A stretch of DNA of 64,000 nucleotides, taken from contig CAXFIU010000001.1 in the NCBI GenBank assembly GCA_964003245.1, positions 20,589 through 84,588 on the forward strand, given 5' to 3'. Within the stretch, counting starts at the first letter, position 1; the number at the start of each line of letters is the position of its first letter. The translations under genes and the position numbers were made by a program. Of the stretch, positions 22,425 to 56,815 are shown one piece after another. The stretch comes from an uncultured Candidatus Poseidoniales archaeon. Its GTDB lineage: Archaea > Thermoplasmatota > Poseidoniia > Poseidoniales > Thalassarchaeaceae. Under the pieces are notes generated by a model. That model was given only the letters and a program-made list of their open reading frames with translations, did not search any database and was not told where the DNA came from.

Positions 22425-23609
22425 TTATGGATGTGGAGGTATTTCATCATTCCAATTTTCCATCTTGTTTAATGTGATTGTTACATTTGTTATTTCCCCA
22501 TCTTCCCAATAATCAACGGCTACAAATGTAGGTCTTCTATCCATAATTTCCCAACATTCTATAGTACGATTTAGTAAAAAATCATACTCATTTATCTCAT
22601 GAGCCTTGTAAGGATCTGCAGTGCCAAATATACTACTCAACCAATGGCTTAGATGCCAAACAGGTTGATTTGAATCTCCTCTCCCCAATTCGCATGTCAT
22701 TTCCTCTTTATCTTGTTGACCATATGGAGTATCCCAACTGTGCTTCCATGCGGGATGGAAATACGGATAACTCTCATTGTAATCATTCTGAACATATATC
22801 ACCACATCCTTTTTTTGTAGAATCATGTCTCCTATTGAAGGCCAAGGTTCTCCTAATTGATGAATAAATACTCTTTCTAAAATTCCAGTTTGATTAAATA
22901 AAAACTCTAGATGATCCGCAGGAACATAGTTTTCAACTAGTATTGATACAACCTCTCCACATACAAATGAACAATTCTCATCAGTTAAATTCATTTGTGA
23001 ATTTAGAAGAGATAACCACTCAAATGCATCTACTTCAGAATACGCACATGGGTGCGGAAACTGACCAGGAGAACCATGACAGAATCTTACATCTTCTGCC
23101 TCAGTTTCATCATTACTTAGATGATGTGCATCCACCATAAATGCTCTAATTCCTCCATCCCATTGAGCTTGAAGTCCAGTATAGTGATTAGTCCCAAGAA
23201 TTACACCATCTTCTGATGTAGCAAAAGCATTGTGTGTCTCAGGAAATGTAAAATTATCATAGTTTCTTAAACAGTATTTTGACAATCCATGGCAAATAAT
23301 CGTATCATTCTGATCTAGTGGGTCAAGACCTCTTTCTGATTCCCAGTCATTCGGCAAGTCATCTCCATCTATATCTTCATCCAAAGTGTCGCAGATTGTA
23401 TCGCCATCTAGGTCATTAGGCATTTCTTCAGAATTATCGGGATTACTATTACAATCAATTTCAATTAGATTTTCCCATCCGTCTCCATCTCTATCTAAAT
23501 CTTCACTATCTTCTATACCGTCATTATCCATGTCTAGAAACTCATCTCCTATGCAACCTGAAAGGACCAAGCCAACAACAATCAGAATCACTATCCAACG
23601 CTTTCCCAT
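22425..23609 (-). CDS. Secreted lipobox protein: thrombospondin-type-3-like Ca-binding repeats + PI-PLC X-domain-like phosphodiesterase
   Basis: Signal/lipobox MGKRWIVILIVVGLVLSGC; DxDxDG repeats (DMDNDGIEDSEDLDRDGDGW, DLDGDTICD, DIDGDDLPNDW); catalytic-like region ETHNAFATSEDGVILGTNHYTGLQAQWDGGIRAFMVDAHH resembling SHNTY...GCRxxELD of PLC X domains. Confidence 0.55.
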   Translation of the reverse strand: MGKRWIVILIVVGLVLSGCIGDEFLDMDNDGIEDSEDLDRDGDGWENLIEIDCNSNPDNSEEMPNDLDGDTICDTLDEDIDGDDLPNDWESERGLDPLDQNDTIICHGLSKYCLRNYDNFTFPETHNAFATSEDGVILGTNHYTGLQAQWDGGIRAFMVDAHHLSNDETEAEDVRFCHGSPGQFPHPCAYSEVDAFEWLSLLNSQMNLTDENCSFVCGEVVSILVENYVPADHLEFLFNQTGILERVFIHQLGEPWPSIGDMILQKKDVVIYVQNDYNESYPYFHPAWKHSWDTPYGQQDKEEMTCELGRGDSNQPVWHLSHWLSSIFGTADPYKAHEINEYDFLLNRTIECWEIMDRRPTFVAVDYWEDGEITNVTITLNKMENWNDEIPPHP

Positions 23610-23719
23610 AGTATTCCATTGATAGCATAGCACATCAATTAATTGGTATGATTGTGCTTTTGATGTGAACTTGTTAGCGTAAGACACTAAGCCACGAAGC
23701 CTTACCCACGATTGATATA

Positions 23720-24502
23720 ATGGCTCGTCGAGATGAAAGAAACTTGAGTTTTTTTGGCCGATTATGGGAAAGTCAGAGGGGCCGACATTTCCAAATTGTC
23801 AGAAATGTTTCAATTTTGTCCGTGGCTCTATTGGTTTGGGGTATAATTTTCCTTTTCGGACTTTCTGGGCCAACTGATCCATCCAAAGAAAATATCGTAG
23901 CTTTAAGTTGGATAGGTATGTTAATTGGAGCCATTGGTACATTCTATGTCGGCCCTGAGTTCTTCTACTATCTTGAGAAGAAACAGGTTCTCGATGATAT
24001 TCTATTGTTGGATTCACGTGCTGAAGTATTAAGACGTCGGAAAGAAGGTGAAGAAGCAGCAATTATGCTTGGAGAGAAGTACATGGGTATGATGCGAGGA
24101 TTACTTGAATTACATGAAATACCTGTAGGAAAGAATCTGACTAATTCTCCAATAATTAACTCTCATAGCGATGCCAATGTTGAAGGAAATTGGTGGAATA
24201 ATTCAGACTCAACTCTCTCACATAAACTTCCGGGATTAGATCTAATTAGAGAGTTATTTTTCCATAGAATATTAATTTTAATAACATCATTTAGTTTAAT
24301 TATGTTATTTTGGAATACTATTTTTGGTATTGCTTCTATGGGTGGTTCTAGAGAGTATACAATCGACCTCACAGAGAGGATTAGCGGCATCTCCTCTTTC
24401 CATCATCTTGCTCCTCACATAGATCCGGTTAGTATTATTTTAATTCTCTTCTTATCTTTCATATTATATCTAACTAGGCCGTATAACTACAAGGAGATTT
24501 AG
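23720..24502 (+). CDS. Hypothetical membrane protein
   Basis: Four or more hydrophobic helices; no recognisable motif. Confidence 0.4.
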   Translation: MARRDERNLSFFGRLWESQRGRHFQIVRNVSILSVALLVWGIIFLFGLSGPTDPSKENIVALSWIGMLIGAIGTFYVGPEFFYYLEKKQVLDDILLLDSRAEVLRRRKEGEEAAIMLGEKYMGMMRGLLELHEIPVGKNLTNSPIINSHSDANVEGNWWNNSDSTLSHKLPGLDLIRELFFHRILILITSFSLIMLFWNTIFGIASMGGSREYTIDLTERISGISSFHHLAPHIDPVSIILILFLSFILYLTRPYNYKEI

Positions 24503-24503
24503 T

Positions 24504-25388
24504 ATGGGAAATGATTTCAACCTCTATCTTAGAGAGGCATTTCTTGCCATAGGGCTGGTTTTCTTATTGCTTGGGTCAATGTGGTTAGCTACCGGCATGT
24601 TCCCTCCAATGGTTGTTGTTGAATCCGGTTCAATGAAACATAGTGAGGATGGATCTTTAGGAGCAATTGATCCTGGTGATTTGGTATTAATTATGAATCC
24701 TGATAGAGTCGACATAGTCACATATGTAGAAGCTTCTAATGAAGGAAATGAGAATTTTGGATATGAAATGCATGGCATGTATGGAGACGTAATTATTTAT
24801 GAAAAAAATGGAGGTTCTGATACTCCAGTAATTCATAGAGCATTACTCAAAGCAGAAGCAAATTTAACTGAAGACCCAATTGATGACTCATGTTCAGAGG
24901 GCGTATTTGATCATTTAGAAGAAATATGTATTTTAACATGGGATGTCCCAGGAACTCATTTAGTCAATGTAAATAATATTTCTTTAACATTAGATTATTC
25001 TTGCGCACCTCATGGAAATCTAACAATCGATAAGTGGGTTCCTGGACATGAAGGATATCTGACAACAGGAGATAATAGAATAACTAATGGATGTACAATT
25101 GATCAATTAAGAGCAACAAGTTCTACAGCCGATGAATCCTACATCCAGAGCCGTGGGTTAAAGGATGAATATGGTAATCCTGTAACTGCTGTAAGAGATG
25201 TTTGGGTAGTTGGTGTTGCATCATCTGAGATTCCATGGGTTGGAGCGATCAAACTCTTCTTTTCAGGAACTTATGATTTTGTATCTCCACAAACTTGGAA
25301 TTATCTGTTTACGTTGATTGCAGCAGTGGTCATAATTCCTATGGTTTATGATATGTTAATATTTAGAGAAAGTGAAGAAGAAGAATAG
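24504..25388 (+). CDS. Archaeal type I signal peptidase (S26B/Sec11-like) with extended ecto-domain and C-terminal TM
   Basis: N-terminal TM then VVVESGSMKHSEDGSLGAIDPGDLVLIMNP (boxes B/C) and LTTGDNRITNGCTIDQ (box D GDN). Confidence 0.65.
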   Translation: MGNDFNLYLREAFLAIGLVFLLLGSMWLATGMFPPMVVVESGSMKHSEDGSLGAIDPGDLVLIMNPDRVDIVTYVEASNEGNENFGYEMHGMYGDVIIYEKNGGSDTPVIHRALLKAEANLTEDPIDDSCSEGVFDHLEEICILTWDVPGTHLVNVNNISLTLDYSCAPHGNLTIDKWVPGHEGYLTTGDNRITNGCTIDQLRATSSTADESYIQSRGLKDEYGNPVTAVRDVWVVGVASSEIPWVGAIKLFFSGTYDFVSPQTWNYLFTLIAAVVIIPMVYDMLIFRESEEEE

Positions 25389-34725: not shown

Positions 34726-36957
34726 ATGTCAAATGAGGAAGTAGATGACTTACAACTTAGAGTAGCCAAGGCAATACCAAGCGATGTAGGGCATGGTCGT
34801 GCACGAGTACCTTTTGATAACGATTTAAATCTGAAACCAGGAGATATTGTTGAGATTACTGGAGAGCAAAAAACCGCCGCTATCGTTTGGCGTTGTCGTC
34901 CAGAAGATGCCAATCTTGGTATTATCAGAGTAGATGGAATTATTAGGAAAAATGCAGGTGTTTCTCTGGGAGATAAAGTTTCAATTCGTAAAGTGGAGAC
35001 ACAGCCTTGTCAGAAATTAATCCTTAGTCCTGTAATGGCTAAGCAACAGAAAGTACGTTTTGGGCCCGGAATTGAGGGATTTGCTCGCAGAGGCCTGAAT
35101 AAGAGACCAGTAGTTTCAGGAGATAGGATATTCATACCTGGAATGACTCTTTTTGCAGAGGCTTTACCGTTCCAGATAGTCAAAACAACTCCTAAAGGGA
35201 TAGTCCAAGTACTTCCCGACACTGAAATAATAATCAAAGAAGAACCTGTTGATGAAGAAGATGAATCTGGCCAACCAATTTCAACAATTTCATATGAGGA
35301 TATAGGAGGAATAGGTGAGCAACTTCAGAAAGTTAGAGAAATGATCGAACTTCCATTGAAGCATCCTATTCTATTCCGAAGATTGGGAATCGATCCCCCG
35401 AGAGGAGTTCTTTTACATGGTCCTCCAGGGACTGGAAAAACATTGATTGCGAAGGCTGTTGCATCAGAAACTAAAGCCAATTTCACTTCAATAAACGGGC
35501 CTGAAATAATTTCGAAATATTACGGAGAGAGTGAAAAACAATTACGTGAAATATTTGATGAAGCAGCTGCTAATTCTCCGGCTATAATTTTCATTGATGA
35601 ATTAGATTCTATTGCTCCTAAGAGAGAAGATGTTAGTGGAGAAGTAGAGAGAAGAGTCGTTGCTCAATTATTGACTTTACTTGATGGTATGCAAGGTAGG
35701 GATAATGTCATAGTAATTGGTGCAACTAATCGTCCTGATGCAATCGATCCGGCTCTTCGTCGTGGAGGGCGATTCGACCGAGAATTAGAGATAGGAGTTC
35801 CAGATAAGAATGGCCGTTCAGAAATCATTGGAATCCATACCCGTGGAATGCCAATTAGTGATGATTTTGAAATTGAATGGTTATTGGATAATACTCATGG
35901 ATTTGTAGGGGCAGATATTTCAGCTCTTGTTAGAGAAGCTGCAATGAAAGCTCTTAGAAGATATTTGCCAGAGATTGATTTAGACGAAGAACAGATTCCA
36001 GCTGAAGTACTTGAAAAGATGGAAGTCAGAATGGCAGATTTCAAATTAGCAATTAAGGAAATTGAACCAAGCGCTCTAAGAGAAATATATCTTGAAGTCC
36101 CCGAAGTAAGTTGGGATCAAGTAGGAGGATTAACAGAAGTCAAAGAAAGACTGAAGGAAAGTATTGAATGGCCCCTCACAAGACCTGAGATGTTTGACCA
36201 TTTTGGTATAAATCCTCCACGGGGAATAGTTCTGTTTGGAGCACCTGGGACTGGTAAGACACTTATTGCTAAGGCGATTGCAAATGAAGCCAAAGCGAAT
36301 TTCATTACAATAAAAGGACCGGAATTAATTTCTAAATGGGTGGGTGACTCAGAGAAAGCTGTTAGAGAGTTATTCAAGAAAGCTAAGCAATCTAGTCCTT
36401 CTATAATTTTCTTAGATGAATTTGAGAGTATTGCTGGAGTCAGGAGAAGTAATACCGGCGAAGGTTCGGATGTGATGAATAGAGTAGTTAATCAATTACT
36501 AAGTTCAATGGATGGTGTTGAATCAATGGAAGGAGTAATCGTCGTTGCAGCTACTAATCGCCCAGAAATGATAGATCCCGCATTACTAAGAAGTGGAAGA
36601 TTCGAAAGAGTCCTCCACATCCCCCCTCCAGATGTTGATTCAATTAAGGCAATTTTGAAAATTCATTCCGAGCCGATGCCTCTTGGAAAATTCAAGATCG
36701 AAGACTTAGCTCCACAGTTAGTTAATTACACCGGTGCAGATATTGAAGCTATATGTAGGGAAGCTGCTTTAATTTCAATGAGAGCCGAGAAAAAAAGTGT
36801 ATCTAAAAAGCATTTTGAAGAGGCAATAAATAGAGTTCGTCCTACGATTACCGATGAAATGATGGATTATTACAATAGAATGGAAGCAAGATTAACTAGT
36901 GGTCTTGAATCAGTTCGACGTAGTTCAGAGGTCCATTCAGGAATTGAATCCGCTTGA
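34726..36957 (+). CDS. cdc48: Cdc48/VCP-like AAA+ ATPase (two AAA domains)
   Basis: N-domain, then two Walker A sites [20 protein letters not shown] and [20 protein letters not shown], two DE(L/F) Walker B sites; no C-terminal HbYX motif. Confidence 0.9.
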
Positions 36958-36967
36958 GGGAAATAAA

Positions 36968-37210
36968 ATGCCAGTAACATTCGGAAGAGAAATCATTAAT
37001 CGTGAAGTTCATGATAGTGCAGATGATAGACTGGGTAGCGTTACAGATTTTACTATAGATATTGAAAATGGACAGATCACTAATATTCTAGTTATGATTG
37101 AACCAGATATAAATCCTCAACTTCTTCCATGGCCTACTGTAAATGGTCTTTTATCTGTTCCAGTTGAAGAGATTGATAGTGTTGGCAAGGTAATTAAACT
37201 ATCAGAATAG
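36968..37210 (+). CDS. PRC-barrel domain small protein
   Basis: MPVTFGREIINREVHDSADDRLGSVTDFTIDIENGQITNILV...; ATG begins 11 nt after the cdc48 stop. Confidence 0.45.
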   Translation: MPVTFGREIINREVHDSADDRLGSVTDFTIDIENGQITNILVMIEPDINPQLLPWPTVNGLLSVPVEEIDSVGKVIKLSE

Positions 37211-37298
37211 CATGATGCATAACCGTTCATTCGTTCACAACCATCTTAAGTCGAAGTTCAGGCTCGATTTTTGTCGTATAGACTAGGTGGGGTATAGG

Positions 37299-38951
37299 AT
37301 GGCCAATTTTCGCGATTATACTCGTAGATTAACTACCTTGAAAGCACGTCGTAATATGTTGATTGGAGCTTTTTGGATTTTACTAATTCTCTTAATTTCT
37401 ACAATAGCAGCAACTTACGTCACAGATGGTCAAACTCAGCAATCAGCATATGGCGATGACTGGAACGATCTTGGTTTGTTTAGAGCTGAGATAAATAGCA
37501 TGGGAGTAGATACAACTGCATTGGTATCAAGCCCTCTATTATTGAGTGAGATCGATCATCCTGAAGAAGCTATTTTCATTATATCGGGTGTAGAGAAAGA
37601 TACTATCTCACTGCCTAGATTTACAGGTGATGAGAATGTGATTGAATTATCTGAGGGTTCGGGCTACACAACTTCTGAGATACTTGCAATCGATGAATTT
37701 GTTGAAGCAGGTGGTACTGTACTTTTGATGGATGATAAAGGCTATTCTTCAACTTTAGCAGAACAGTTTGGATTAGAATTCTCAGGCCATACCTTGTATG
37801 ATGGAGAAGCATATGCTACAGAATTAGATTACAATTTCATTTGGGTAAATACTACATCTGCCTTTAATTTCACAACTAATTCTGGTTCTTTATCAAGCAT
37901 TCATCCATGTCTTAGAGATACAGATACTGATGGTTTCATTGATTTACTAGACACTGACCCTTATGATATTACAACATTTCCAGCAGGAATTACTCGTGAA
38001 GATGCAGGATTGTGCTCCCACCGATGGATATCAGAAACACAATGGGATTTCTCTGAGAATTATAATTTGTTAACTAACCAACCATCTGCTTTCAATGCAG
38101 GTTCTTATAATCCCGTAGAAAATAGATATGATATAGGAAAATCTACTCTTGATTCATATTTAGATACTAATGATGACGGTAATCTCACGATTGGTTCTTC
38201 TGCATTTGGAATTGATGGAGATGAAGTAGGCCCATTTGCTGTTTATGTCCGTTACTGTGCAGATCGTTTGTGTGTAGGGGCTGACTCTGGAAGAGTACAT
38301 TTTGTTGCAGATGGTTCAGTATTAACTAATTCATTGTATGACGATGCATTTTACTCAGGAGTAGACGATGTTGTTCCTTCAAATGATAATAGGAAATGGG
38401 CGCTCGACATTATTGCAGAATCTTTATTGATTGGCAATTCGAGTGCAAAAAGTTCTTCAAATGCGATTGTAATTTTTGATGAATCAAGACATCAACAACC
38501 TACATTATTCGGAGATACATATAACTTAATGTATTACTTATTGATCTATTTTACCAATGATTGGATGGCAATGTTACTATTATTCCTTGGTTTATTTATT
38601 ACTTTAGAGGCGGTTTTAATTCGTAAAGAAGATCCTGAAAACTGGCGACATGTATTCAGAATAATTTACTACGGTTTTGGAGACGCTAGGAGATATGAAT
38701 ATTATCAAAAACCTGAAAAAATAAGGCAGGTATTACTTACGAGAATACGAAATCTGAATACGCTTTCAAGAGAAGAATTTGATGCACTCCCCGCTGCTGA
38801 ATTACAAAGAATGATTGATGACCAAGTATTAACTAAATTCATTTTCGAAGATAGAAGATATAAGCCCGATGAATTGGTTGGGATTGTGAAAAGAATCAAG
38901 GAATGGGGTTCAACTAATTCTGAAGAGGAGGTAGAATATGTGGACTCGTAA
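37299..38951 (+). CDS. DUF4350-like membrane-anchored ecto-protein (N- and C-terminal TM, large Asp/Thr-rich external domain)
   Basis: N-terminal TM MLIGAFWILLILLISTIAA, external domain with IVIFDESRHQQ block, C-terminal TM MAMLLLFLGLFITL; first gene of SD-coupled three-gene unit. Confidence 0.45.
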   Translation: MANFRDYTRRLTTLKARRNMLIGAFWILLILLISTIAATYVTDGQTQQSAYGDDWNDLGLFRAEINSMGVDTTALVSSPLLLSEIDHPEEAIFIISGVEKDTISLPRFTGDENVIELSEGSGYTTSEILAIDEFVEAGGTVLLMDDKGYSSTLAEQFGLEFSGHTLYDGEAYATELDYNFIWVNTTSAFNFTTNSGSLSSIHPCLRDTDTDGFIDLLDTDPYDITTFPAGITREDAGLCSHRWISETQWDFSENYNLLTNQPSAFNAGSYNPVENRYDIGKSTLDSYLDTNDDGNLTIGSSAFGIDGDEVGPFAVYVRYCADRLCVGADSGRVHFVADGSVLTNSLYDDAFYSGVDDVVPSNDNRKWALDIIAESLLIGNSSAKSSSNAIVIFDESRHQQPTLFGDTYNLMYYLLIYFTNDWMAMLLLFLGLFITLEAVLIRKEDPENWRHVFRIIYYGFGDARRYEYYQKPEKIRQVLLTRIRNLNTLSREEFDALPAAELQRMIDDQVLTKFIFEDRRYKPDELVGIVKRIKEWGSTNSEEEVEYVDS

Positions 38952-40191
38952 AGCAGCTATCCTCCTTACAAGCGGAATAAGCTTGATTCTCATAGGTATG
39001 ATGATTTCTAATTTCCAATTAATGATTGTAGGCCTGACTTTCGTTTCATTCTTAGCAATTAATGGGTGGGTTGAGGGACATTCAGATTTAGAAATAAAAA
39101 GAGAAGTTTCTGCTGTCAATGTTTACAAAGGAGATGACATAAATGTTGTACTAACTATAACAAATAAGTCATATCGGCGTACACAACAGTTAGAGGTTTT
39201 TGATAATGTACCTCATGAGATGAAAATGAGAAAAGGTATCAATCTAATGCGAATGAACCTAGGCCCTGGACAAACTGCCACGATTCGTTATACAGTTCGT
39301 TGTCCATTACGGGGGCACTATACCATAGGTCCGACATCTATTAGGTATCGTAATACATTCAATTTATTTGTTTCCGAAACTAGTATCGGAGATCGATCAG
39401 ATATCACAGTATTCCCTCAAGTTAGAGATGTGGAAGAGGCCTTGATTCGTTCTGATGTTCCAAAGATGTATACTGGAGCTACCACTCTAAAAACGCCAGG
39501 GCAAGGAATGGAATTTTACGCTTTGAGAGAATATTTCCCAGGGGATTCATTCCGCTCAATTAATTGGAAAGCTTTTGCTAGAACTGGGGAATTAATGGTT
39601 AATGAGAAGACTAGAGATGCGGTAACTGACGTTTTTATTATTCTCGATACTCGTGACGTAGCAAGAATTGGAACTGTGCTAAAGAATCCATTAGAAATGG
39701 GTACAGTAGCCGCTGCTTCAATCGCTAATTATTTCATCAAGAGAAGAGATTCGGTTTCTTTGGTTACCTATGGTGAAAGAATGGATTTCCTCCCTCCTGA
39801 AACTGGAGATAAGCAACATTACAAGGTTCTAAGCCAATTGGCTGCAGTTGAATCGAAAGGGAGTATGCCCTTACAAGCAGTAACTAATGCCCTTTCACCA
39901 AGAATTTCTAGAGGTTCTCCTGTATTTATTATCAGTAGTTTAGAAGGGGATGGTACGACTTTATCAGCAATTAGAAATCTCTCTGGCAAGGGTCATGAAG
40001 TAATTGTTTTGTCTCCAAGTAGCATTGATCTTGAGAGGCTTGTAAGTAGGATTCCAAGAATGGCCTATGAAGTATTAAAATTGGAAAGACAAAATCGATT
40101 AACAGCTATTTCAGGATATGGAGCCAAAGTAATAGACTGGACACCCAGTGTTGAATTATCTCAAGCTTTATTGCAAATTAGGACAGTATAA
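38938..40191 (+). CDS. DUF58 family protein (vWA-like, MoxR-associated type)
   Basis: N-terminal TM pair then REYFPGDSFRSINWKAFARTGELMVNEKTRDAVTDVFIILDTRD, matching the DUF58 core; GGAGG SD, 14-nt overlap with upstream gene. Confidence 0.65.
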   Translation: MWTRKAAILLTSGISLILIGMMISNFQLMIVGLTFVSFLAINGWVEGHSDLEIKREVSAVNVYKGDDINVVLTITNKSYRRTQQLEVFDNVPHEMKMRKGINLMRMNLGPGQTATIRYTVRCPLRGHYTIGPTSIRYRNTFNLFVSETSIGDRSDITVFPQVRDVEEALIRSDVPKMYTGATTLKTPGQGMEFYALREYFPGDSFRSINWKAFARTGELMVNEKTRDAVTDVFIILDTRDVARIGTVLKNPLEMGTVAAASIANYFIKRRDSVSLVTYGERMDFLPPETGDKQHYKVLSQLAAVESKGSMPLQAVTNALSPRISRGSPVFIISSLEGDGTTLSAIRNLSGKGHEVIVLSPSSIDLERLVSRIPRMAYEVLKLERQNRLTAISGYGAKVIDWTPSVELSQALLQIRTV

Positions 40192-40205
40192 GGAGGTTAG
40201 AAAAT

Positions 40206-41399
40206 ATGGCAATTGATGTAGTACCAGAATCAAAAACTCTCCATATCAAAAAATTACGTTTTAGATGGCAAGTACTTCTGTTACAAACTTTATCTACAGT
40301 TTCTCTATTATTTTTAATGCGTAAGATGAGTGAATTATATGGTGAATGTTCTGATAAGTTTGTCGCAAACTCAGGTTCAGATGGTTGGTGTCCAGCATAC
40401 GAACACACTAGAGGTTTGAGATGGATGGAATCTAATGGAAATACTATTTTACCTAATTTTATCACTGGAATTAATGAATCTGGTTTTGATGCGTTTACTA
40501 TGCCTTTGATACTATGTGTTGTTTTGACTGCATTATGGGTATTCGTGCAAACACGCGGAGAAAGAACTCAATTAATTATTAAAAGAACATTAAGTATAAT
40601 CTTGGCTTCTTGGTTCCTTCTTCCATTCCTAATTTCTTGGTTAATAGGCATGGTTTCATATGGCCCTTATCTTCCAATAGGAAATGCTGATGAGCAATAT
40701 AATCATATCGAATTAGTTTTAGTTCCATTCGAGTTTTTCTTTGAATTAATCTTTTTTGGTATTGTATTTGCTCCAATTCTTATAGGTTTAATGGGAATTT
40801 GGGGTCTTTCTAAGAGGATGATTACATGGGCTACAGGTTACTTTTTGATGGTGATTGGAATCCATGCAATGTTGACATTTGAAGGGGTAACCACCGCAGT
40901 AGATGTTGGATTGAGACCTCTATCTGCCCAAATTGGTGAAGCGACCTTATTTGGAGGATTAATTTCTCCATTAGCGTTTGATTTACTTACAGTAGCTATA
41001 CTATTGTTGGTATTCTTAGAATCTGGATTAGCAGTAATAACAAATCTTGAGTATACTTCTGTGCTTCCCGAAGCATCGAAGAATGATCCAGAATATGTCA
41101 ATCAATTTAATAATATTATTAATGGACATCTAATACACTTATTCGGAATAATGATTGTTGTAAGTTTAACAACAGCCCTTGCTCTTGAATTTGATGATTT
41201 CTTAATTTCATTCGTTGGGTTCTTAGAAGGTTCTCAATGGTCTGGTCAAGTAAAGGAGTCTTTAGAATTACAACTAACTTATGGTAAAGTAATTTCAGCA
41301 TCATTATTCATGATTGTTGTTGCCGGCGGACGATTCGTAATTCCTTGGCAAAGACTTACCGGAGTTATTGAGACAGGCCTTTCAAAAATTAGAAATTAG
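40206..41399 (+). CDS. Hypothetical polytopic membrane protein (third gene of DUF4350/DUF58 unit)
   Basis: AAGGAGG SD 8 nt upstream; about 9 TM segments; N-terminal Cys-containing extracytoplasmic stretch. Confidence 0.4.
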   Translation: MAIDVVPESKTLHIKKLRFRWQVLLLQTLSTVSLLFLMRKMSELYGECSDKFVANSGSDGWCPAYEHTRGLRWMESNGNTILPNFITGINESGFDAFTMPLILCVVLTALWVFVQTRGERTQLIIKRTLSIILASWFLLPFLISWLIGMVSYGPYLPIGNADEQYNHIELVLVPFEFFFELIFFGIVFAPILIGLMGIWGLSKRMITWATGYFLMVIGIHAMLTFEGVTTAVDVGLRPLSAQIGEATLFGGLISPLAFDLLTVAILLLVFLESGLAVITNLEYTSVLPEASKNDPEYVNQFNNIINGHLIHLFGIMIVVSLTTALALEFDDFLISFVGFLEGSQWSGQVKESLELQLTYGKVISASLFMIVVAGGRFVIPWQRLTGVIETGLSKIRN

Positions 41400-41671
41400 C
41401 TCAATCTTAAAATTTTATGAAGAGCTCCCCAAATAAAAATAATTAATACAAATTCAATAACTATGATTATAATATTATTTTCAATACCCAAAGATTGCGG
41501 AAGTTCCACAATCTGTTCTTGAAATAAGATTGTTATTAAAATAGTAATGAAAACTAAAAAACGATGTAACCAAGGACCAAATCTACTTACTTCATTTTCA
41601 TTGGTTAAGGAGGTGTGGTCATTCATACCTCTATCAGGGGTATCGGGGTCATCAATCCATCGCTTAATCAC
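41396..41671 (-). CDS. Possible small two-TM membrane protein
   Basis: 91-aa ORF convergent on the preceding operon; hydrophobic C-terminal half; may be spurious. Confidence 0.25.
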   Translation of the reverse strand: MIKRWIDDPDTPDRGMNDHTSLTNENEVSRFGPWLHRFLVFITILITILFQEQIVELPQSLGIENNIIIIVIEFVLIIFIWGALHKILRLS

Positions 41672-44223: not shown

Positions 44224-45213
44224 ATGATAATCAGTCGGACCCCAGTTCGAGTTTCATTTTGTGGAGGTGGAACCGACGTAGATTGGTTCTCTACGTCATC
44301 TGAAAAAGGCGGAATGGTTACATCTCTGGCCATTGATAGATATATCCATGTAATTGTCAATAGGCGTTTTGATGAAAGAATTAGACTATCTTATTCAAAG
44401 TTAGAAGTTGTAGATAATTTTGAAGATCTTGAACATGAATTAGTTCGTGAATCAATGAGAATAACTGGCGTCACTTCTGGAGTCGAAATAACTACAATAG
44501 CCGATATTCCATCTAGAGGTACTGGTTTAGGGTCTTCTTCTGCCGTTACTGTAGGTTTGCTAAATGCTTTACATTGCTTCGCAGGGCGAAATGTTTCGGC
44601 GTCTCAATTGGCATCTGAAGCATGTGAAATTGAAATTAAGATATTAGGACAGCCTATTGGTAGACAAGATCAATATGCTGCAGCCTTCGGTGGAATAAAC
44701 TCCATCAAATTCTGTTCTGATGGCAATGTAATCGTCGATCCAATTAATATTTCCGAAAAAATACAGTCAAATATTTCAGATGAATTCACTCTTATCTTCA
44801 CTGGTCAGAATCGTTCCGCCTCTGCTGTACTATTAAATTCAGAAGAAGAGGGAAAATCTGCTATTGATAATTTAATTAGAATAAGGGAACAGGCAGATGA
44901 AGCGAGAGATTTTCTTTCTTCAGGAGATCTATCAAAACTAGGTCTCCTTCTCAATGAAGCATGGTCTATGAAAAGAGGTATTTCTTCAAATGTAAGTAAC
45001 GATTTCCTTGATGAGATGTATAGCCAAATAATGTCTACTGGCGCTAATGGCGCTAAATTATTAGGTGCTGGAGGGGGGGGATTCTTCCTTGTCCATGGAG
45101 ACCAACAACTTCGTGAAAAATTACAGTCCAATTTCTCTTCTGAGCATAGAATGTTGCCTCTGAACATTGACTTTAATGGTTCATCAATCATTTTTAATGA
45201 TTCAAGAGTGTGA
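44224..45213 (+). CDS. GHMP-family sugar kinase (D-glycero-D-manno-heptose-7-phosphate kinase HddA-like)
   Basis: SRTPVRVSFCGGGTDVDWF N-terminal motif and PSRGTGLGSSSAVTVG GHMP ATP-binding loop; start could be 44203. Confidence 0.6.
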   Translation: MIISRTPVRVSFCGGGTDVDWFSTSSEKGGMVTSLAIDRYIHVIVNRRFDERIRLSYSKLEVVDNFEDLEHELVRESMRITGVTSGVEITTIADIPSRGTGLGSSSAVTVGLLNALHCFAGRNVSASQLASEACEIEIKILGQPIGRQDQYAAAFGGINSIKFCSDGNVIVDPINISEKIQSNISDEFTLIFTGQNRSASAVLLNSEEEGKSAIDNLIRIREQADEARDFLSSGDLSKLGLLLNEAWSMKRGISSNVSNDFLDEMYSQIMSTGANGAKLLGAGGGGFFLVHGDQQLREKLQSNFSSEHRMLPLNIDFNGSSIIFNDSRV

Positions 45214-45217
45214 AAAG

Positions 45218-47323
45218 ATGAACAAAAAAATATTCTCATTTGTATTGATGTTGCTAGTTATTTTTAGCCTGAATAACACTTCTGTAAGTGCTACAAATGA
45301 TCAAAATATTGGCGATGAAGATATTATCTCTTCAATTACAGGATATTCAAAGTTTATCATAGAAGAAGAAATAAAAGTTAATTCACAGTTTAATGCATCT
45401 TGGGAGTCATCTATAATTCTCTCTGATCAGATTGGAACTGATCTTCTTCAGAACTCGGAATTAGGACTTAGGGCCCAAATTGATATTCATTTAGGAAATT
45501 CTGATGGCTTTGTAGATTCAAATGAATCAGATTTATTCGATCAATTATTTCGTATAGAAAGGAACTGGACCAATTCTGAAAATGGTGGTTGCTGTATTTT
45601 TGATTATAATCCTCTTTATTCACCCCAAGGAGTTAATTTACTTACATCTAAAGTAGTATCAGGTCCAATAGAATTAGAAAACTCCACATGGGGGTGGAAT
45701 GAGTCAACTGATTTGATAGGGCAGACAGATAGTCGAGCTACTAGAATTATCGACTTTCCAAGAGTCGGTTCATTAGTTGAAGAAGTTCCGTTAATGATTT
45801 TCCTTCCAGCAGATTGGGAATACACATATAGTGCAATGGGAGAAATATTTTCCGGAGAACCAGGTGAATTTATTGTAAATCGGTCCGAAGCAAATGTTGC
45901 AAGTAATATTCGAGTAACAATTTCTAATAATCAAATGCCCAATGCTCTGGGTTACAGAACTTCAACTGGAACAATGATTACTTTAACCTCTAATACATTA
46001 TATTATGGAGAATGTGAAGATAGTACTTTAGATCATAATCAACAATGGTGGACATTGTCAAACAATGGCGCTCTTGTTTTGACACACTATGGATCTAGTC
46101 TAAGTTTCATTTCTCAAGATTATGGTTTCCAAGAAGGAGATGTTGCTAGTATAGTTATGCATTGTAAAGATTGGTTTAATGTCACAGATACATGGCATGA
46201 AGATATAGTTATTGACTCTATTTTCCCAACTTGGGAATCAGTAATCTCTTACATAAATGATGATAATGAGAGAATTATACTTGATATTAATCAATCTATC
46301 GAAGTTAAATCAGATACAAGTATTTCATTTAATATTTCAGCAGATGATCCTAATTCTGAGTCACCTGTGGATATTAAGATCATATCAAATAAGACTCCTA
46401 ATTATATTCATAGAGATGTAAATAATTTAGCTTTCTCAGATGTATTTTATCAAAATAATGATGTAAACGGACTCCATCTAAATCTTTCTGAACGTCATAA
46501 AGCTAAGTATCCTACATCATGGTCAGTTAATCTGACAATTTCTGATGGTGCAGGGAATACGATTTATGAAGAATGGGAAATAATTGTTTTAGATGGTATA
46601 GGGCCAACAATAGTTCCTGACTTAATAATCAATAATCAATCGATTTCATCTAATAACCTCGCTAGAGAGGGTGATCTAATTACAATCTCTCTACAACAGT
46701 CTTTTGATGATTTAGATTCAATTAATGATACAAAATGGTCTCTATCAATTGATAATAAAGTAATTTCTGATAATGTTACAATGAATCAAATAGATAAAAT
46801 GACTCTCGGACCGTTCACTTCTGGAACTCATATCTTTAGTATAGACGCATATGATTCTTCTTTGAATCATCAGAATCTTGCATTTGGATTAGCAGTTTCT
46901 CCAAGTCTGGGAGTAGATATTGAATTAATTTCTACCGAAGTTGATGGTCAATTGATTGAGGGAAATACGGTTTTATTTTCAGCATCTATGAAAAACAATA
47001 GAGCATCTTCTGGATCTGGACAATTTTGTGTAAATAGTCAATGTGGGCCATTTGTTGGAGTACCCGCTGCAAATTCTAACTCTCCAGGATATTTCGATGT
47101 AGAATTGAGTTTTGAGTTGAGCAGTTCGACTCCGATTACTACATATTTTAAGTGGCAAAGTGAGAGTGCCGGAGATAATGGTCAAATAAATATTGAATCT
47201 GACATTCCAGTTGAACCATCTTGGCAAAAACCCATACAAACAGTTTTGTTAGTCTTTGTATCTTTATCATTATTTGTTATTATTGTTAATCGCCTCTGGG
47301 GAGTAGATTCTCAAAGGCCATAA
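45218..47323 (+). CDS. Large exported surface protein, N-glycosylation-sequon rich, C-terminal TM anchor
   Basis: Signal peptide MNKKIFSFVLMLLVIFSLNNTSVSA; more than 25 NxS/T sequons; C-terminal TM VLLVFVSLSLFVIIV then short basic tail. Confidence 0.5.
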   Translation: MNKKIFSFVLMLLVIFSLNNTSVSATNDQNIGDEDIISSITGYSKFIIEEEIKVNSQFNASWESSIILSDQIGTDLLQNSELGLRAQIDIHLGNSDGFVDSNESDLFDQLFRIERNWTNSENGGCCIFDYNPLYSPQGVNLLTSKVVSGPIELENSTWGWNESTDLIGQTDSRATRIIDFPRVGSLVEEVPLMIFLPADWEYTYSAMGEIFSGEPGEFIVNRSEANVASNIRVTISNNQMPNALGYRTSTGTMITLTSNTLYYGECEDSTLDHNQQWWTLSNNGALVLTHYGSSLSFISQDYGFQEGDVASIVMHCKDWFNVTDTWHEDIVIDSIFPTWESVISYINDDNERIILDINQSIEVKSDTSISFNISADDPNSESPVDIKIISNKTPNYIHRDVNNLAFSDVFYQNNDVNGLHLNLSERHKAKYPTSWSVNLTISDGAGNTIYEEWEIIVLDGIGPTIVPDLIINNQSISSNNLAREGDLITISLQQSFDDLDSINDTKWSLSIDNKVISDNVTMNQIDKMTLGPFTSGTHIFSIDAYDSSLNHQNLAFGLAVSPSLGVDIELISTEVDGQLIEGNTVLFSASMKNNRASSGSGQFCVNSQCGPFVGVPAANSNSPGYFDVELSFELSSSTPITTYFKWQSESAGDNGQINIESDIPVEPSWQKPIQTVLLVFVSLSLFVIIVNRLWGVDSQRP

Positions 47324-47375
47324 TCTGAAACAAATATCCGCAGCACTCATGAGTCATAACATATTGTGATTAATT

Positions 47376-49094
47376 GTGATTCTACTACCCGACTACCCTG
47401 ATCGAGTGATTCGAGATCATAGAGTTCGAGTTGAAAGAATAGCATTATCTGTAACTTTCTTACTTATTTTTTCCGCATCATGGTGGTTATTTTCTGGTTT
47501 ATTTGGTTCACCAGAGATATTACCTCGTTTAGGTCCAATATCTATGATATTTATTTCTTCATTAGTTGTAATTGACTTGATTGATTATGGACTGATTCAG
47601 AGATCTAGGTTAGGTGTAATTGCCAATATCTCTTATCCTAGTCTTTTAGCACTATCTGTCTCTAATATCGGATATAATGATGCCTTAATATCGGGATTAA
47701 TATATTTCCTATTAGCAATATTTCTCTGGTCTGTTGCTAGGAAAAACCTCTCCATAACTCATTCATCTAGGAGATGGAGAGGATTAACTAGTTTTCTCGG
47801 ACTCGCATTTTCAGCCTCAATTATGTATTCCATTTCGTCGGAAATGTACGTTTATTTATTTGTCTTAATTTGTGTACTAGTAACTATGGCGCCTGATTTA
47901 CTATCCAAGGATGAAAATTACAAATCAAGGAAAAAATTCACCAAGAAACTTGATGCCGTTGAGGGGCAGGTGTTACTATTACGGAGCAAAGGAATCTCTC
48001 TAGAACAAGCCTCCTCAATTTTGAAGAAAGCAAGAGAGGAATGTTGGAATGATCCTGAGAGAGGTATGGGGATGATCTCACTTGCTGAAGAAGAAATTGA
48101 ACGAGTTCAAGCGTTGGCTAAAGACTTAGATGACATAAGACAAGAAACTCATCTTTTTTTGAAGAAAGCAGAATCTATAGCTCCTGGAATAAATGGTCCA
48201 AGGAATGCATTTGAATCTGGAGAAAAAGAATCTGATTTCGGGTCATTGAGGGAGGCAGAGATATTCTTCCGGCTTTCCAAAAAGAAGTCCGAGGAGGTAA
48301 TTCAGTATTGGCAAAATGCAATTGATGAAATTGCAAGCGCTGAAGAACTAATTTCTAATATCAAACAGATTCAATTAGACTCAATAAAAAACATAATTGA
48401 TTCTGCCAAGGAAGCACTTGAATCGGAAAATCCAATTGAAGCAATTAAAATAGCTTCTTCAGTTTCCGGACATCTTGACAGTTTAGAAGCTACCACAATA
48501 GAGGCCAAAGAAGCAATAATAGAAGCAGAAAAGGCGATTGAAGAGGTTGATGATAGTTTCTCAATTAGTACCAAAGAGAGATTATTAGAGTCAAAGAATG
48601 CTTTAGAATCAGGAAACTCTTCCCTTGCTAAAGGATTGGCTACAAGTATTCTCAGAGATATAAATAAGGTTTCTGAATCTATGCAGAAAGTACAACGAGG
48701 ACTTAGGCAGAAGAAAAAATTGATTGCAAGATTCCCTACTGGTCAATCTGGTGATCAATGGAGAAATGAATTGAAGAATATTGAAGATAAAGTAGATTTA
48801 GAACAGTGGGTTGAAGCATCTAGACTCTTAGAATCACTTACCAAAGATCTTCAAATATATGAAAAATCAAAATCAGAGGCTTTAGAATTATACACTTTTG
48901 TAGAAAGTGAGTGGATGGACTTAAGGAAAAAACTAGATTCTTCTAATATTAAAGTCAATGACTCAATGAGAATGAATGCTGAGAATAAAATTTCTGAATG
49001 TAAGAGATTATTAGATGAGGGAGATATAGATTCTACACTTTCATTATTGGGAGAAACTGATGAAATCATCGAGAACCTTAGACGAAGAATCTAG
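47376..49094 (+). CDS. Membrane protein: N-terminal 4-5 TM domain + about 370-aa cytoplasmic coiled-coil/alpha-helical domain
   Basis: Hydrophobic N-terminal third; remainder highly charged with heptad-like E/K/L periodicity; GTG start per ORF track. Confidence 0.4.
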   Translation: MILLPDYPDRVIRDHRVRVERIALSVTFLLIFSASWWLFSGLFGSPEILPRLGPISMIFISSLVVIDLIDYGLIQRSRLGVIANISYPSLLALSVSNIGYNDALISGLIYFLLAIFLWSVARKNLSITHSSRRWRGLTSFLGLAFSASIMYSISSEMYVYLFVLICVLVTMAPDLLSKDENYKSRKKFTKKLDAVEGQVLLLRSKGISLEQASSILKKAREECWNDPERGMGMISLAEEEIERVQALAKDLDDIRQETHLFLKKAESIAPGINGPRNAFESGEKESDFGSLREAEIFFRLSKKKSEEVIQYWQNAIDEIASAEELISNIKQIQLDSIKNIIDSAKEALESENPIEAIKIASSVSGHLDSLEATTIEAKEAIIEAEKAIEEVDDSFSISTKERLLESKNALESGNSSLAKGLATSILRDINKVSESMQKVQRGLRQKKKLIARFPTGQSGDQWRNELKNIEDKVDLEQWVEASRLLESLTKDLQIYEKSKSEALELYTFVESEWMDLRKKLDSSNIKVNDSMRMNAENKISECKRLLDEGDIDSTLSLLGETDEIIENLRRRI

Positions 49095-55861: not shown

Positions 55862-56815
55862 ATGATTGGACGCGAGGGTGGCCGAATATTGGTCACAGGA
55901 GCACTTGGTCAGATTGGTACTGATTTAGTACAGTCATTAAGAGAGATTTATGGTTCTGATATGGTAATAGCTAGTGATATCAGGGAGAAACCAAATCATT
56001 CATGCATTCTAACTGGCCCATATGTTAATCTAGATGTACTTGATAAAAATCGAATTTTTCAGATTATTAATGATCAGAACATCAAAATTATTTATCATTT
56101 AGCTGCAATTCTTTCCGCAAGAGGTGAAGAAAATCCAGAATTATGCGAATTGATTAATGTAGAAGGTACTAGAAATATTTTTGATGCTGGCAGAGAATTT
56201 GGTTTACGCATTTTCACTCCTTCATCTATCGCTGTTTTTGGCCCAGATACACCCAAGAAAGCTCCTCAAGTAACTCCGCTTAATCCTACTACTAAATATG
56301 GAATGACTAAGGTAGAATGTGAAATCTTAGGTATGATATATTATCAAAAATATGGAGTAGATATTAGAGGTATTAGGTATCCTGGTCTTATTTCTTGGAA
56401 GTCACCTGTTAGCGGTGGAACTACTGACTATGCAGTAGATATATTCCATGCAGCACTTTCTGATGATTCAAAGTATGATTGTTTCCTTAATGGTGACACT
56501 CGTCTCCCCATGATGTACATGGACGATGCGATTAGAGCCACAATATCATTAATGGATGCTCCAATTGATTCATTGAGTTCAGCACGTTGCGGTTACAATA
56601 TTTCTGGTCTTTCTTTCACGCCCAAAGAATTAGTATCTGAGATTAAGAAGAGATTGCCACATTTCGTTTGTAAATATAAACCAGACATACGTCAAAATTA
56701 TGCCGATTCATGGCCTGATTCTATTGATGATGAGGTTTCAAGAAATGACTGGAATTGGCAATCAAGATTTGATCTAGAAACTATGGTTGATGAGATGATT
56801 AGTAACTTAAAGTGA
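55862..56815 (+). CDS. tdh: Extended-SDR NAD-dependent epimerase/dehydratase family enzyme, L-threonine 3-dehydrogenase-like
   Basis: ILVTGALGQIGTDLV Rossmann motif; blocks ASDI, HLAAILSARGE, VFGPDTPK, GGTTDYAVDIF, LPMMYMDDA, SFTPKEL resemble UDP-galactose-epimerase-like TDHs (from memory). Confidence 0.55.
   Translation: MIGREGGRILVTGALGQIGTDLVQSLREIYGSDMVIASDIREKPNHSCILTGPYVNLDVLDKNRIFQIINDQNIKIIYHLAAILSARGEENPELCELINVEGTRNIFDAGREFGLRIFTPSSIAVFGPDTPKKAPQVTPLNPTTKYGMTKVECEILGMIYYQKYGVDIRGIRYPGLISWKSPVSGGTTDYAVDIFHAALSDDSKYDCFLNGDTRLPMMYMDDAIRATISLMDAPIDSLSSARCGYNISGLSFTPKELVSEIKKRLPHFVCKYKPDIRQNYADSWPDSIDDEVSRNDWNWQSRFDLETMVDEMISNLK

Follow-up and report, generated by a model that had tools for sequence, protein, structure and literature searches.

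A Poseidoniales-restricted family of Ig-domain surface proteins encoded between a GHMP kinase gene and the gene of a helical-repeat membrane protein

The three genes described here lie in a 64-kb stretch of DNA (the window; G+C content ~37%) from an uncultured Candidatus Poseidoniales archaeon. We confirmed three open reading frames (ORFs) on the same strand, 44203/44224-45213, 45167-47323 and 47376-49094, which encode a kinase of the GHMP superfamily, a surface protein that we call X and, downstream of it, a helical-repeat membrane protein that we call CC. The close homologues of the set come from 'Candidatus Poseidoniales', Thalassarchaeaceae and marine group II (MGII) metagenome-assembled genomes. 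The original prediction, made from the letters of the window, took the trio for a surface-layer (S-layer) or envelope-scaffold unit; our analysis supports this in part for X alone and does not establish it for the three genes together. Most secure is the result that X represents a new, Poseidoniales-restricted family of Ig-domain surface proteins, of a known sort of archaeal surface glycoprotein. The features of the locus are the following (aa, amino acids; TM, transmembrane):

44224-45213, + strand: GHMP-superfamily sugar(-phosphate) kinase, HddA/WcbL-like, 329 aa (Pfam, NCBIfam, PDB alignment)
45218-45292, + strand: predicted signal peptide of X, aa 1-25, MNKK followed by a hydrophobic core and VSA/T (hydropathy, AlphaFold, orthologues)
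45329-45928, + strand: head domain of X, ~aa 38-237, beta-rich
45935-47209, + strand: four tandem beta-sandwich domains of X (Ig/PKD/HYR-like)
47225-47323, + strand: C-terminal TM helix of X, aa 670-693, cytoplasmic tail NRLWGVDSQRP and stop codon (hydropathy, AlphaFold)
47338-47352, + strand: conserved non-coding element CCGCAGCACTCATGA in the X-CC spacer (47323-47376; spacer alignment)
47376-47909, + strand: membrane domain of CC, aa 1-178, N-terminus MILLPDYP, four strong and two weak hydrophobic helices (hydropathy, AlphaFold)
47913-49094, + strand: cytoplasmic helical-repeat domain of CC, aa 180-572, six ~62-aa units

The ORF of X opens with a TTG codon, from which the 718 residues of the original prediction are counted. 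An ATG at 45218, 4 nt past the kinase stop codon, gives a 701-residue protein with a classical signal peptide, and distant orthologues start equivalently; some gene callers use a further start, ATG 45197 (708 aa). Because of the orthologue starts and of signal-peptide logic we favour ATG 45218, so that X most likely extends from 45218 to 47323 and the TTG start of the longer ORF is disfavoured. The signal peptide proposed earlier was recovered as a hydropathy segment (residues 5-26) and as an AlphaFold helix (5-18), behind which the linker is modelled at low confidence, with an equivalent N-terminal hydrophobic segment in all X orthologues, and cleavage is predicted behind VSA. At the other end of the protein hydropathy (670-697) and AlphaFold (670-693) both gave a TM helix, in line with the predicted anchor, whereas the tail, said to be short and basic, is short but only weakly basic. 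Family members of the nearer half share the tail motif N-R-L-W-G-x-[DE]-S-x-[RK]-P, which other tails replace in deeper clades.

Structure prediction for X resulted in a confident AlphaFold model (pLDDT 85) in which the signal helix is followed by a beta-rich head with two helices, four Ig/PKD-like beta-sandwiches (~residues 240-335, 338-460, 463-562 and 566-664) and the TM helix. The head comprises a helix-loop-helix insert with an LGNSDG...E motif and the vicinal pair Cys125-Cys126. The ectodomain is strongly acidic (pI 4.08), and the family alignment contains six invariant cysteines, including the vicinal pair, conserved acidic motifs and an invariant SFDDLD motif. As the original prediction had supposed, no known domain family is recognisable in X: there was no match in Pfam or NCBIfam at E <= 0.01, and the X family profile retrieved nothing from the PDB beyond short PKD-like stretches; X thus matches no sequence family of these three databases. 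X itself misses the gathering score of Pfam PKD (PF00801), which its relative P0214 passes with 27.2 bits against a cut-off of 23.5, and the X domains superpose on solved PKD domains, with matches to PKD, Ig and FN3. A Foldseek search of the full model against the PDB gave matches to generic multi-Ig/MG/FN3 chains such as complement C3, alpha-2-macroglobulin and contactin, with TM-scores of only 0.13-0.18, which we do not accept as a sign of homology. In the literature we found nothing specific on an MGII S-layer or on the X family.

A word-indexed search gave 81 relatives of X, all from marine group II sources and down to 33% identity, and a profile search of 1.84 billion representatives gave ~30 full-length X clusters. 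Beyond these clusters the profile matched giant repeat proteins only, at positions ~435-475 and 525-570, which correspond to Ig-like repeat motifs. By both searches the X family is restricted to Poseidoniales, in line with the lineage-specific character proposed for the three-gene unit. Several orthologues carry an additional enzyme domain. In a clade of ~1125-1140 aa, encoded at the same locus, a Beta-lactamase-family domain lies between signal peptide and conserved module (L003:7001-10390, L025-L038, L053 and L063), with both its SxxK (SLSK) and its YxN (YSN) motif preserved. An endonuclease/exonuclease/phosphatase (EEP) domain is found in another cluster, P0204 also being listed among the enzyme-headed proteins, and one species encodes an 1861-aa X with both heads (L055:2398-7980). 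The linker W-x-W-P-[ED]-P-L-P-P-Q-D-D, ahead of the shared module, is conserved. Since the conserved 660-aa module bears varied heads, it appears to be a reusable membrane-anchored stalk able to present exoenzymes, which is consistent with the protein- and polymer-degrading lifestyle proposed for marine group II archaea. A 398-aa database protein, P0079, combines Glycos_transf_4 (PF00953) with a stretch that is 81% identical to 29% of X, and is possibly chimeric or derived from a misassembled short contig (2 kb).

The original prediction had reported more than 25 N-x-S/T sequons in X. We counted 17, against 11.2 ± 2.9 in composition-preserving shuffles (p ~0.04); the resulting density, 2.43 per 100 aa, amounts to fourfold the median of the window (0.60) and is the maximum found there, tied with the cytoplasmic kinase. 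As kinase and X are equally dense, sequon counts alone are a poor guide. X orthologues retain 12-20 sequons, with conserved columns including position 391 (N391, in 20 of 21 sequences), and their density is similar across clades, with no difference between loci with and without a kinase. X is probably N-glycosylated at the conserved sequons. In the kinase (44224-45213) there are 8 sequons in 329 aa against 3.3 in shuffles (p ~0.008), a surplus that is probably an effect of its Ser-rich composition. Of the S-layer-type layout ascribed to X, the exported, anchored and sequon-rich surface protein stands, here found to be acidic and built of beta-sandwiches; X has no homology to a known S-layer family.

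The kinase may also start at ATG 44203, giving 336 aa; its orthologues mostly have 329. It matches GHMP_kinases_N (3.5e-15) and GHMP_kinases_C in Pfam, and its best NCBIfam match is HddA (NF049969), to which it aligns over its full length (residues 8-307 against profile positions 2-312 of 338) with 156.2 bits, missing the 600-bit equivalog cut-off. The best solved structures were heptose kinases (3k85, 2e-36; 4n3o; WcbL, 4usk/4usm), and in the alignment to 3k85 the motifs P-x-R...GGG-D, PxGxGLGSSS, GxQDQ and GAGGGGF are all kept. The catalytic Arg and Asp of WcbL have been defined (PMC4691232); both are retained in the kinase (in P-x-R and GxQDQ, respectively), together with the phosphate-binding loop and the GHMP fold. 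As judged from these residues the kinase is catalytically intact, and the name that suits it best is anomeric sugar(-phosphate) kinase, within the HddA/fucokinase branch. The predicted likeness to heptose kinases holds for HddA and WcbL, but extends neither to the equivalog level nor to pathway neighbours in the window. The Pfam survey in which the latter were sought took in 54 ORFs, of which 46 lie around the trio; these are all large ORFs of the window but for three downstream genes, annotated from an orthologous locus only. The homologue lists for the kinase and CC were filled by near-identical Poseidoniales sequences and are uninformative on distant relatives.

CC (whole gene 47376-49094, + strand) has four strong TM segments by hydropathy, as had been predicted, and six TM helices at low confidence by AlphaFold (12-42, 49-70, 80-95, 100-123, 132-150 and 156 onward; pLDDT <50); the alignment behind this model is shallow, and its TM part is unreliable. 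The motifs WW, DLxxYG, RSR, RxRG and TMxPDL are invariant among the orthologues, and so is the N-terminus, M-[IVLM]-[LMIT]-[LM]-[PS]-[DNG]-Y-P, across all loci. The C-terminal 393 residues are all-helical. Their earlier description as almost pure coiled coil was overstated: strong heptad segments cover 28% (score 0.635 vs 0.487 ± 0.029 in shuffles), and the model contains six units, each consisting of a short helix and a long helix of 37-45 aa. An internal repeat is supported statistically for at least one pair (315-380 vs 380-445; hhalign probability 84%). CC belongs to no family in NCBIfam or in Pfam, the latter giving only a sub-threshold YfdX match, and its sequence gave no match in the PDB at E <= 1.

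The spacer between X and CC contains a conserved element. A relaxed CCGCAGCACTCATGA motif is present in 65 of 81 X-CC spacers, where its spacing to the CC start codon that follows is constant (20-21 nt), and the element occurs once in the window. Where CC abuts pyrB, the same upstream position is occupied by a TATA-like GCATACTATATGTTTGA; an Rfam scan of the region gave no match. The presence of CCGCAGCACTCATGA, together with its TATA-like counterpart in lineages that have CC only, suggests that CC is probably separately promoted, with CCGCAGCACTCATGA probably being its own promoter element. Another TATA-like sequence, TTTTTAAT, precedes the X start by ~24 nt; as it falls within conserved coding sequence for the kinase C-terminus, we do not claim it as an internal promoter.

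Gene order was compared by tblastn in 82 loci, obtained from four look-ups and a one-genome-per-species scan. The order pyrI-pyrB (divergent), kinase, X, CC was found in every locus with sufficient flanking sequence (~80 species-level genomes), with variable outer flanks. The kinase is present in 75 of the 82 loci, the other seven being cut off upstream; counted from its stop codon, X begins at -29 to +27 nt, without exception among the loci. Between X and CC the spacing is 39-68 nt at almost all loci, and CC adjoins X in every locus with downstream sequence (>90 loci). X identity among the loci ranges from 32 to 92%, as compared to 75-97% for pyrB. Among more distant relatives four loci keep kinase and X, and a nested pattern emerges: CC is most widespread, followed by X and then by the kinase, which is never found at this locus without X. 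In these deeper relatives the set is separable as CC alone, X-CC or kinase-X-CC. The joint conservation expected by the original prediction is thus found in the nearer clades and is lost in deeper relatives, which in part speaks against a fixed unit.

Starting from the observed gene structures, folds, motifs, taxonomic distribution and nested gene order, we infer every functional link among the three genes as follows. X is read as a membrane-anchored Ig-domain stalk of the envelope, the kinase as probably co-transcribed with it, and CC as an independent scaffold, a reading whose chances, taken as a whole, are evenly balanced. X would be exported via Sec and its signal peptide cleaved, leaving an acidic ectodomain on a single C-terminal TM helix, with a distal ~200-aa head, carrying an EF-hand-like insert, and then four Ig/PKD-like beta-sandwiches, probably held by three disulfides. 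The head may bind calcium. In the cell envelope X would most likely act as a rigid stalk or a scaffold, which in several related species carries beta-lactamase-family serine-hydrolase heads, EEP phosphoesterase heads or both; a display or spacer function at the surface describes it better than that of an enzyme or of a proven S-layer lattice. As the kinase abuts or overlaps X, the two genes are probably co-transcribed, and by its position the kinase might, as a weak suggestion, provide a sugar phosphorylated at the anomeric position, to be used in a glycan of X or of the envelope. CC, a polytopic membrane protein with a spectrin/EzrA-like cytoplasmic arm, is older and more widespread than X and would probably be an independent membrane-associated scaffold, beside which X came to lie, rather than an obligate partner of X; a link between the two is plausible by adjacency alone.

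Several observations weigh against this reading. The case for glycosylation of X consists of its sequons, in which the cytoplasmic kinase is equally dense, and among the window ORFs of the Pfam survey we found neither GmhA, GmhB or HddC nor a glycosyltransferase or AglB. The match of CC to EzrA is one among many similarly scoring generic helical bundles, obtained with a model of moderate to low confidence. Moreover, the position of pyrBI is conserved as strictly as that of the kinase, indicating that gene-order conservation within Poseidoniales is weak functional evidence and may only reflect collinearity. Finally, at least 12 deeper loci have the order pyrB-X-CC without a kinase, and in at least six, on metagenome contigs (L098-L102, L105), CC stands beside pyrB with neither kinase nor X within up to 13.7 kb.

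These last points lead to a doubtful but serious alternative, in which kinase, X and CC are unrelated neighbours in a collinear core block, the kinase serving general sugar salvage or nucleotide-sugar metabolism, X being a stand-alone adhesin or hydrolase anchor and CC an independent membrane scaffold, for instance in cell shape or division. Here the strictly held positions of pyrI-pyrB, and often of TtuA, the separability of the set, the conserved element upstream of CC with its TATA-like form in CC-only lineages, the equal sequon density of X with or without a kinase and a remaining window of housekeeping genes devoid of glycosylation genes would all be expected. Mere neighbourhood fits less well with the kinase never occurring at a locus without X and with its stop codon abutting or overlapping the X start everywhere, suggesting co-transcription, or with X, where present, always lying directly upstream of CC even when the outer flanks differ. 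It is unlikely that X is a lattice-forming S-layer glycoprotein anchored by its C-terminal helix, for which the kinase makes the N-glycan sugar and CC acts as a cytoplasmic organiser of the lattice. X resembles archaeal S-layer proteins in architecture (signal peptide, Ig-like chain, acidic sequon-rich ectodomain, C-terminal anchor), is represented in each of ~80 species by a single orthologue at a constant locus and diverges fast when measured against pyrB, yet it matches no S-layer family in Pfam, NCBIfam or the PDB, and its structural matches are the generic, low-scoring multi-Ig chains described above. The tips of orthologues carry enzyme heads of 420 to 1150 aa, awkward for a conserved lattice; they argue against a strictly lattice-forming role, which leaves room for such a role of head-less forms like the X of the window. 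Some relatives lack X at the locus, and the gene begins 4 nt after that of the kinase, not behind an obvious strong promoter. In a Red Sea metatranscriptome the dominant MGII transcripts are reported to be those of collagen-like disordered surface proteins and not of the X family (PMC5069720); the supplements of that study make no mention of a fosmid bearing an X orthologue.

Two further proposals connect X with CC. In one, which we consider highly improbable, both form a trans-membrane complex where X senses or binds outside and its tail contacts the CC helical-repeat arm; the envelope would thereby be coupled to a scaffold in the cytoplasm, as by an EzrA-like organiser or a signalling unit. 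The adjacency of X and CC in >90 loci, the conservation of the X tail within clades (NRLWGxDSxRP and WARSRNEPRF, each in one clade) and the resemblance of CC to the membrane-anchored spectrin-like repeats of EzrA are in its favour, but CC occurs without X nearby, is apparently separately promoted and has a model of low confidence. In addition, the invariant CC N-terminus is unchanged when the X tail motif changes, and no co-variation of the two was found. The other proposal, improbable as well, sees X and CC as an order-wide trans-envelope unit, in which X is a glycosylated stalk, at times with hydrolases at its tip, whose clade-conserved tail docks on the membrane-anchored, EzrA/spectrin-like CC scaffold; a single family would then have acquired the dedicated kinase for modification of the stalk. 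If true, it would join the surface of the cell to an organiser of shape or division in the cytoplasm, of a type undescribed in archaea. Our preferred reading remains that of an envelope stalk with a probably co-transcribed kinase and an independent scaffold next to it.

Poseidoniales are among the most abundant planktonic archaea; to our knowledge none has been cultured, and we know of no experimental work on their envelope. The X family would provide candidate surface antigens, virus receptors and cell-bound exoenzymes for the turnover of organic matter, and CC, which is widespread and has a spectrin-like arm, may be an archaeal membrane scaffold. These results do not overturn current ideas; they fill in annotations and correct an over-reading of the gene neighbourhood.

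The region is a core-genome, housekeeping stretch of a marine group II archaeon and no island. The Pfam survey assigned window ORFs to Nuo/Mrp subunits, eIF1A, a RIO kinase, acyl-CoA carboxylase, SerRS, a signal-peptide peptidase, an Lhr-type helicase, succinate dehydrogenase, Cdc48, a DUF4350/DUF58 cluster, TtuA, the thermosome, DnaK, leucyl aminopeptidase and an arginase-family protein, and from the orthologous locus L001 there are, in addition, PyrBI, ThrRS, an amino-acid-kinase-family gene, NAD kinase and CTP synthase. Three neighbouring ORFs, 22425-23687 (- strand), 23720-24502 (+ strand) and 24504-25388 (+ strand), encode proteins of 420, 260 and 294 aa without a Pfam match. The first of them has 8 sequons (1.9 per 100 aa, the third-highest density in the window), and its product may be another surface protein. 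At 34726-41399 (+ strand) lie, in this order, the genes of a Cdc48-like AAA ATPase, of a DUF4350 and a DUF58 protein, the N-terminal part of DUF58 being DUF11/BatD-like, and of a multi-pass membrane protein (397 aa) without a family; the DUF58 and 397-aa membrane protein genes are also kept upstream in related loci. Between the latter and TtuA lies a small ORF of 91 aa (41396-41671, - strand) at a conserved position, whose counterpart in L001-L003 is annotated with 75-79 aa; its product contains a single hydrophobic segment and belongs to no family. Apart from the trio, the window has just one gene of sugar-nucleotide type, encoding an NAD-dependent sugar epimerase/dehydratase (55862-56815, + strand); it is found ~6.8 kb downstream of the trio, with unrelated housekeeping genes intervening.

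Each of the three proteins can be set against a known system. The kinase shares with HddA and WcbL the whole-length alignment, the GHMP N and C domains and the catalytic residues, and its orthologues bear the JGI automatic name of an HddA enzyme; it differs in scoring far under the equivalog cut-off and in that GDP-heptose pathway genes were not found in the window. The model of CC resembles EzrA, the bacterial membrane-anchored spectrin-like-repeat FtsZ regulator (4uxv/4uy3), and no more than a resemblance is meant: sequence similarity was found neither with Pfam nor in the PDB, CC has 4-6 TM helices vs one in EzrA, and its repeats have ~62 aa vs ~100 aa. The domains of X were compared with the PKD/HYR-type domains of surface-anchored hydrolases, such as the PKD domain of ColH collagenase (4u7k) and that of a Thermoplasmatales M14 peptidase (4xed). 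Unlike these, the X of the window has no catalytic domain, and its domains remain under the Pfam PKD threshold. From the archaeal Ig-domain S-layer proteins of Haloferax volcanii (csg, 7ptp) and Methanosarcina mazei (1l0q) X is set apart by the lack of sequence homology and of a PGF-CTERM or other sorting signal, by an anchor that consists of a simple TM helix and a conserved tail in the cytoplasm, and by its unique head and the hydrolase heads of its orthologues, whereas it has in common with them the export signal, the string of beta-sandwiches, the acidic sequon-rich ectodomain and the C-terminal anchor.

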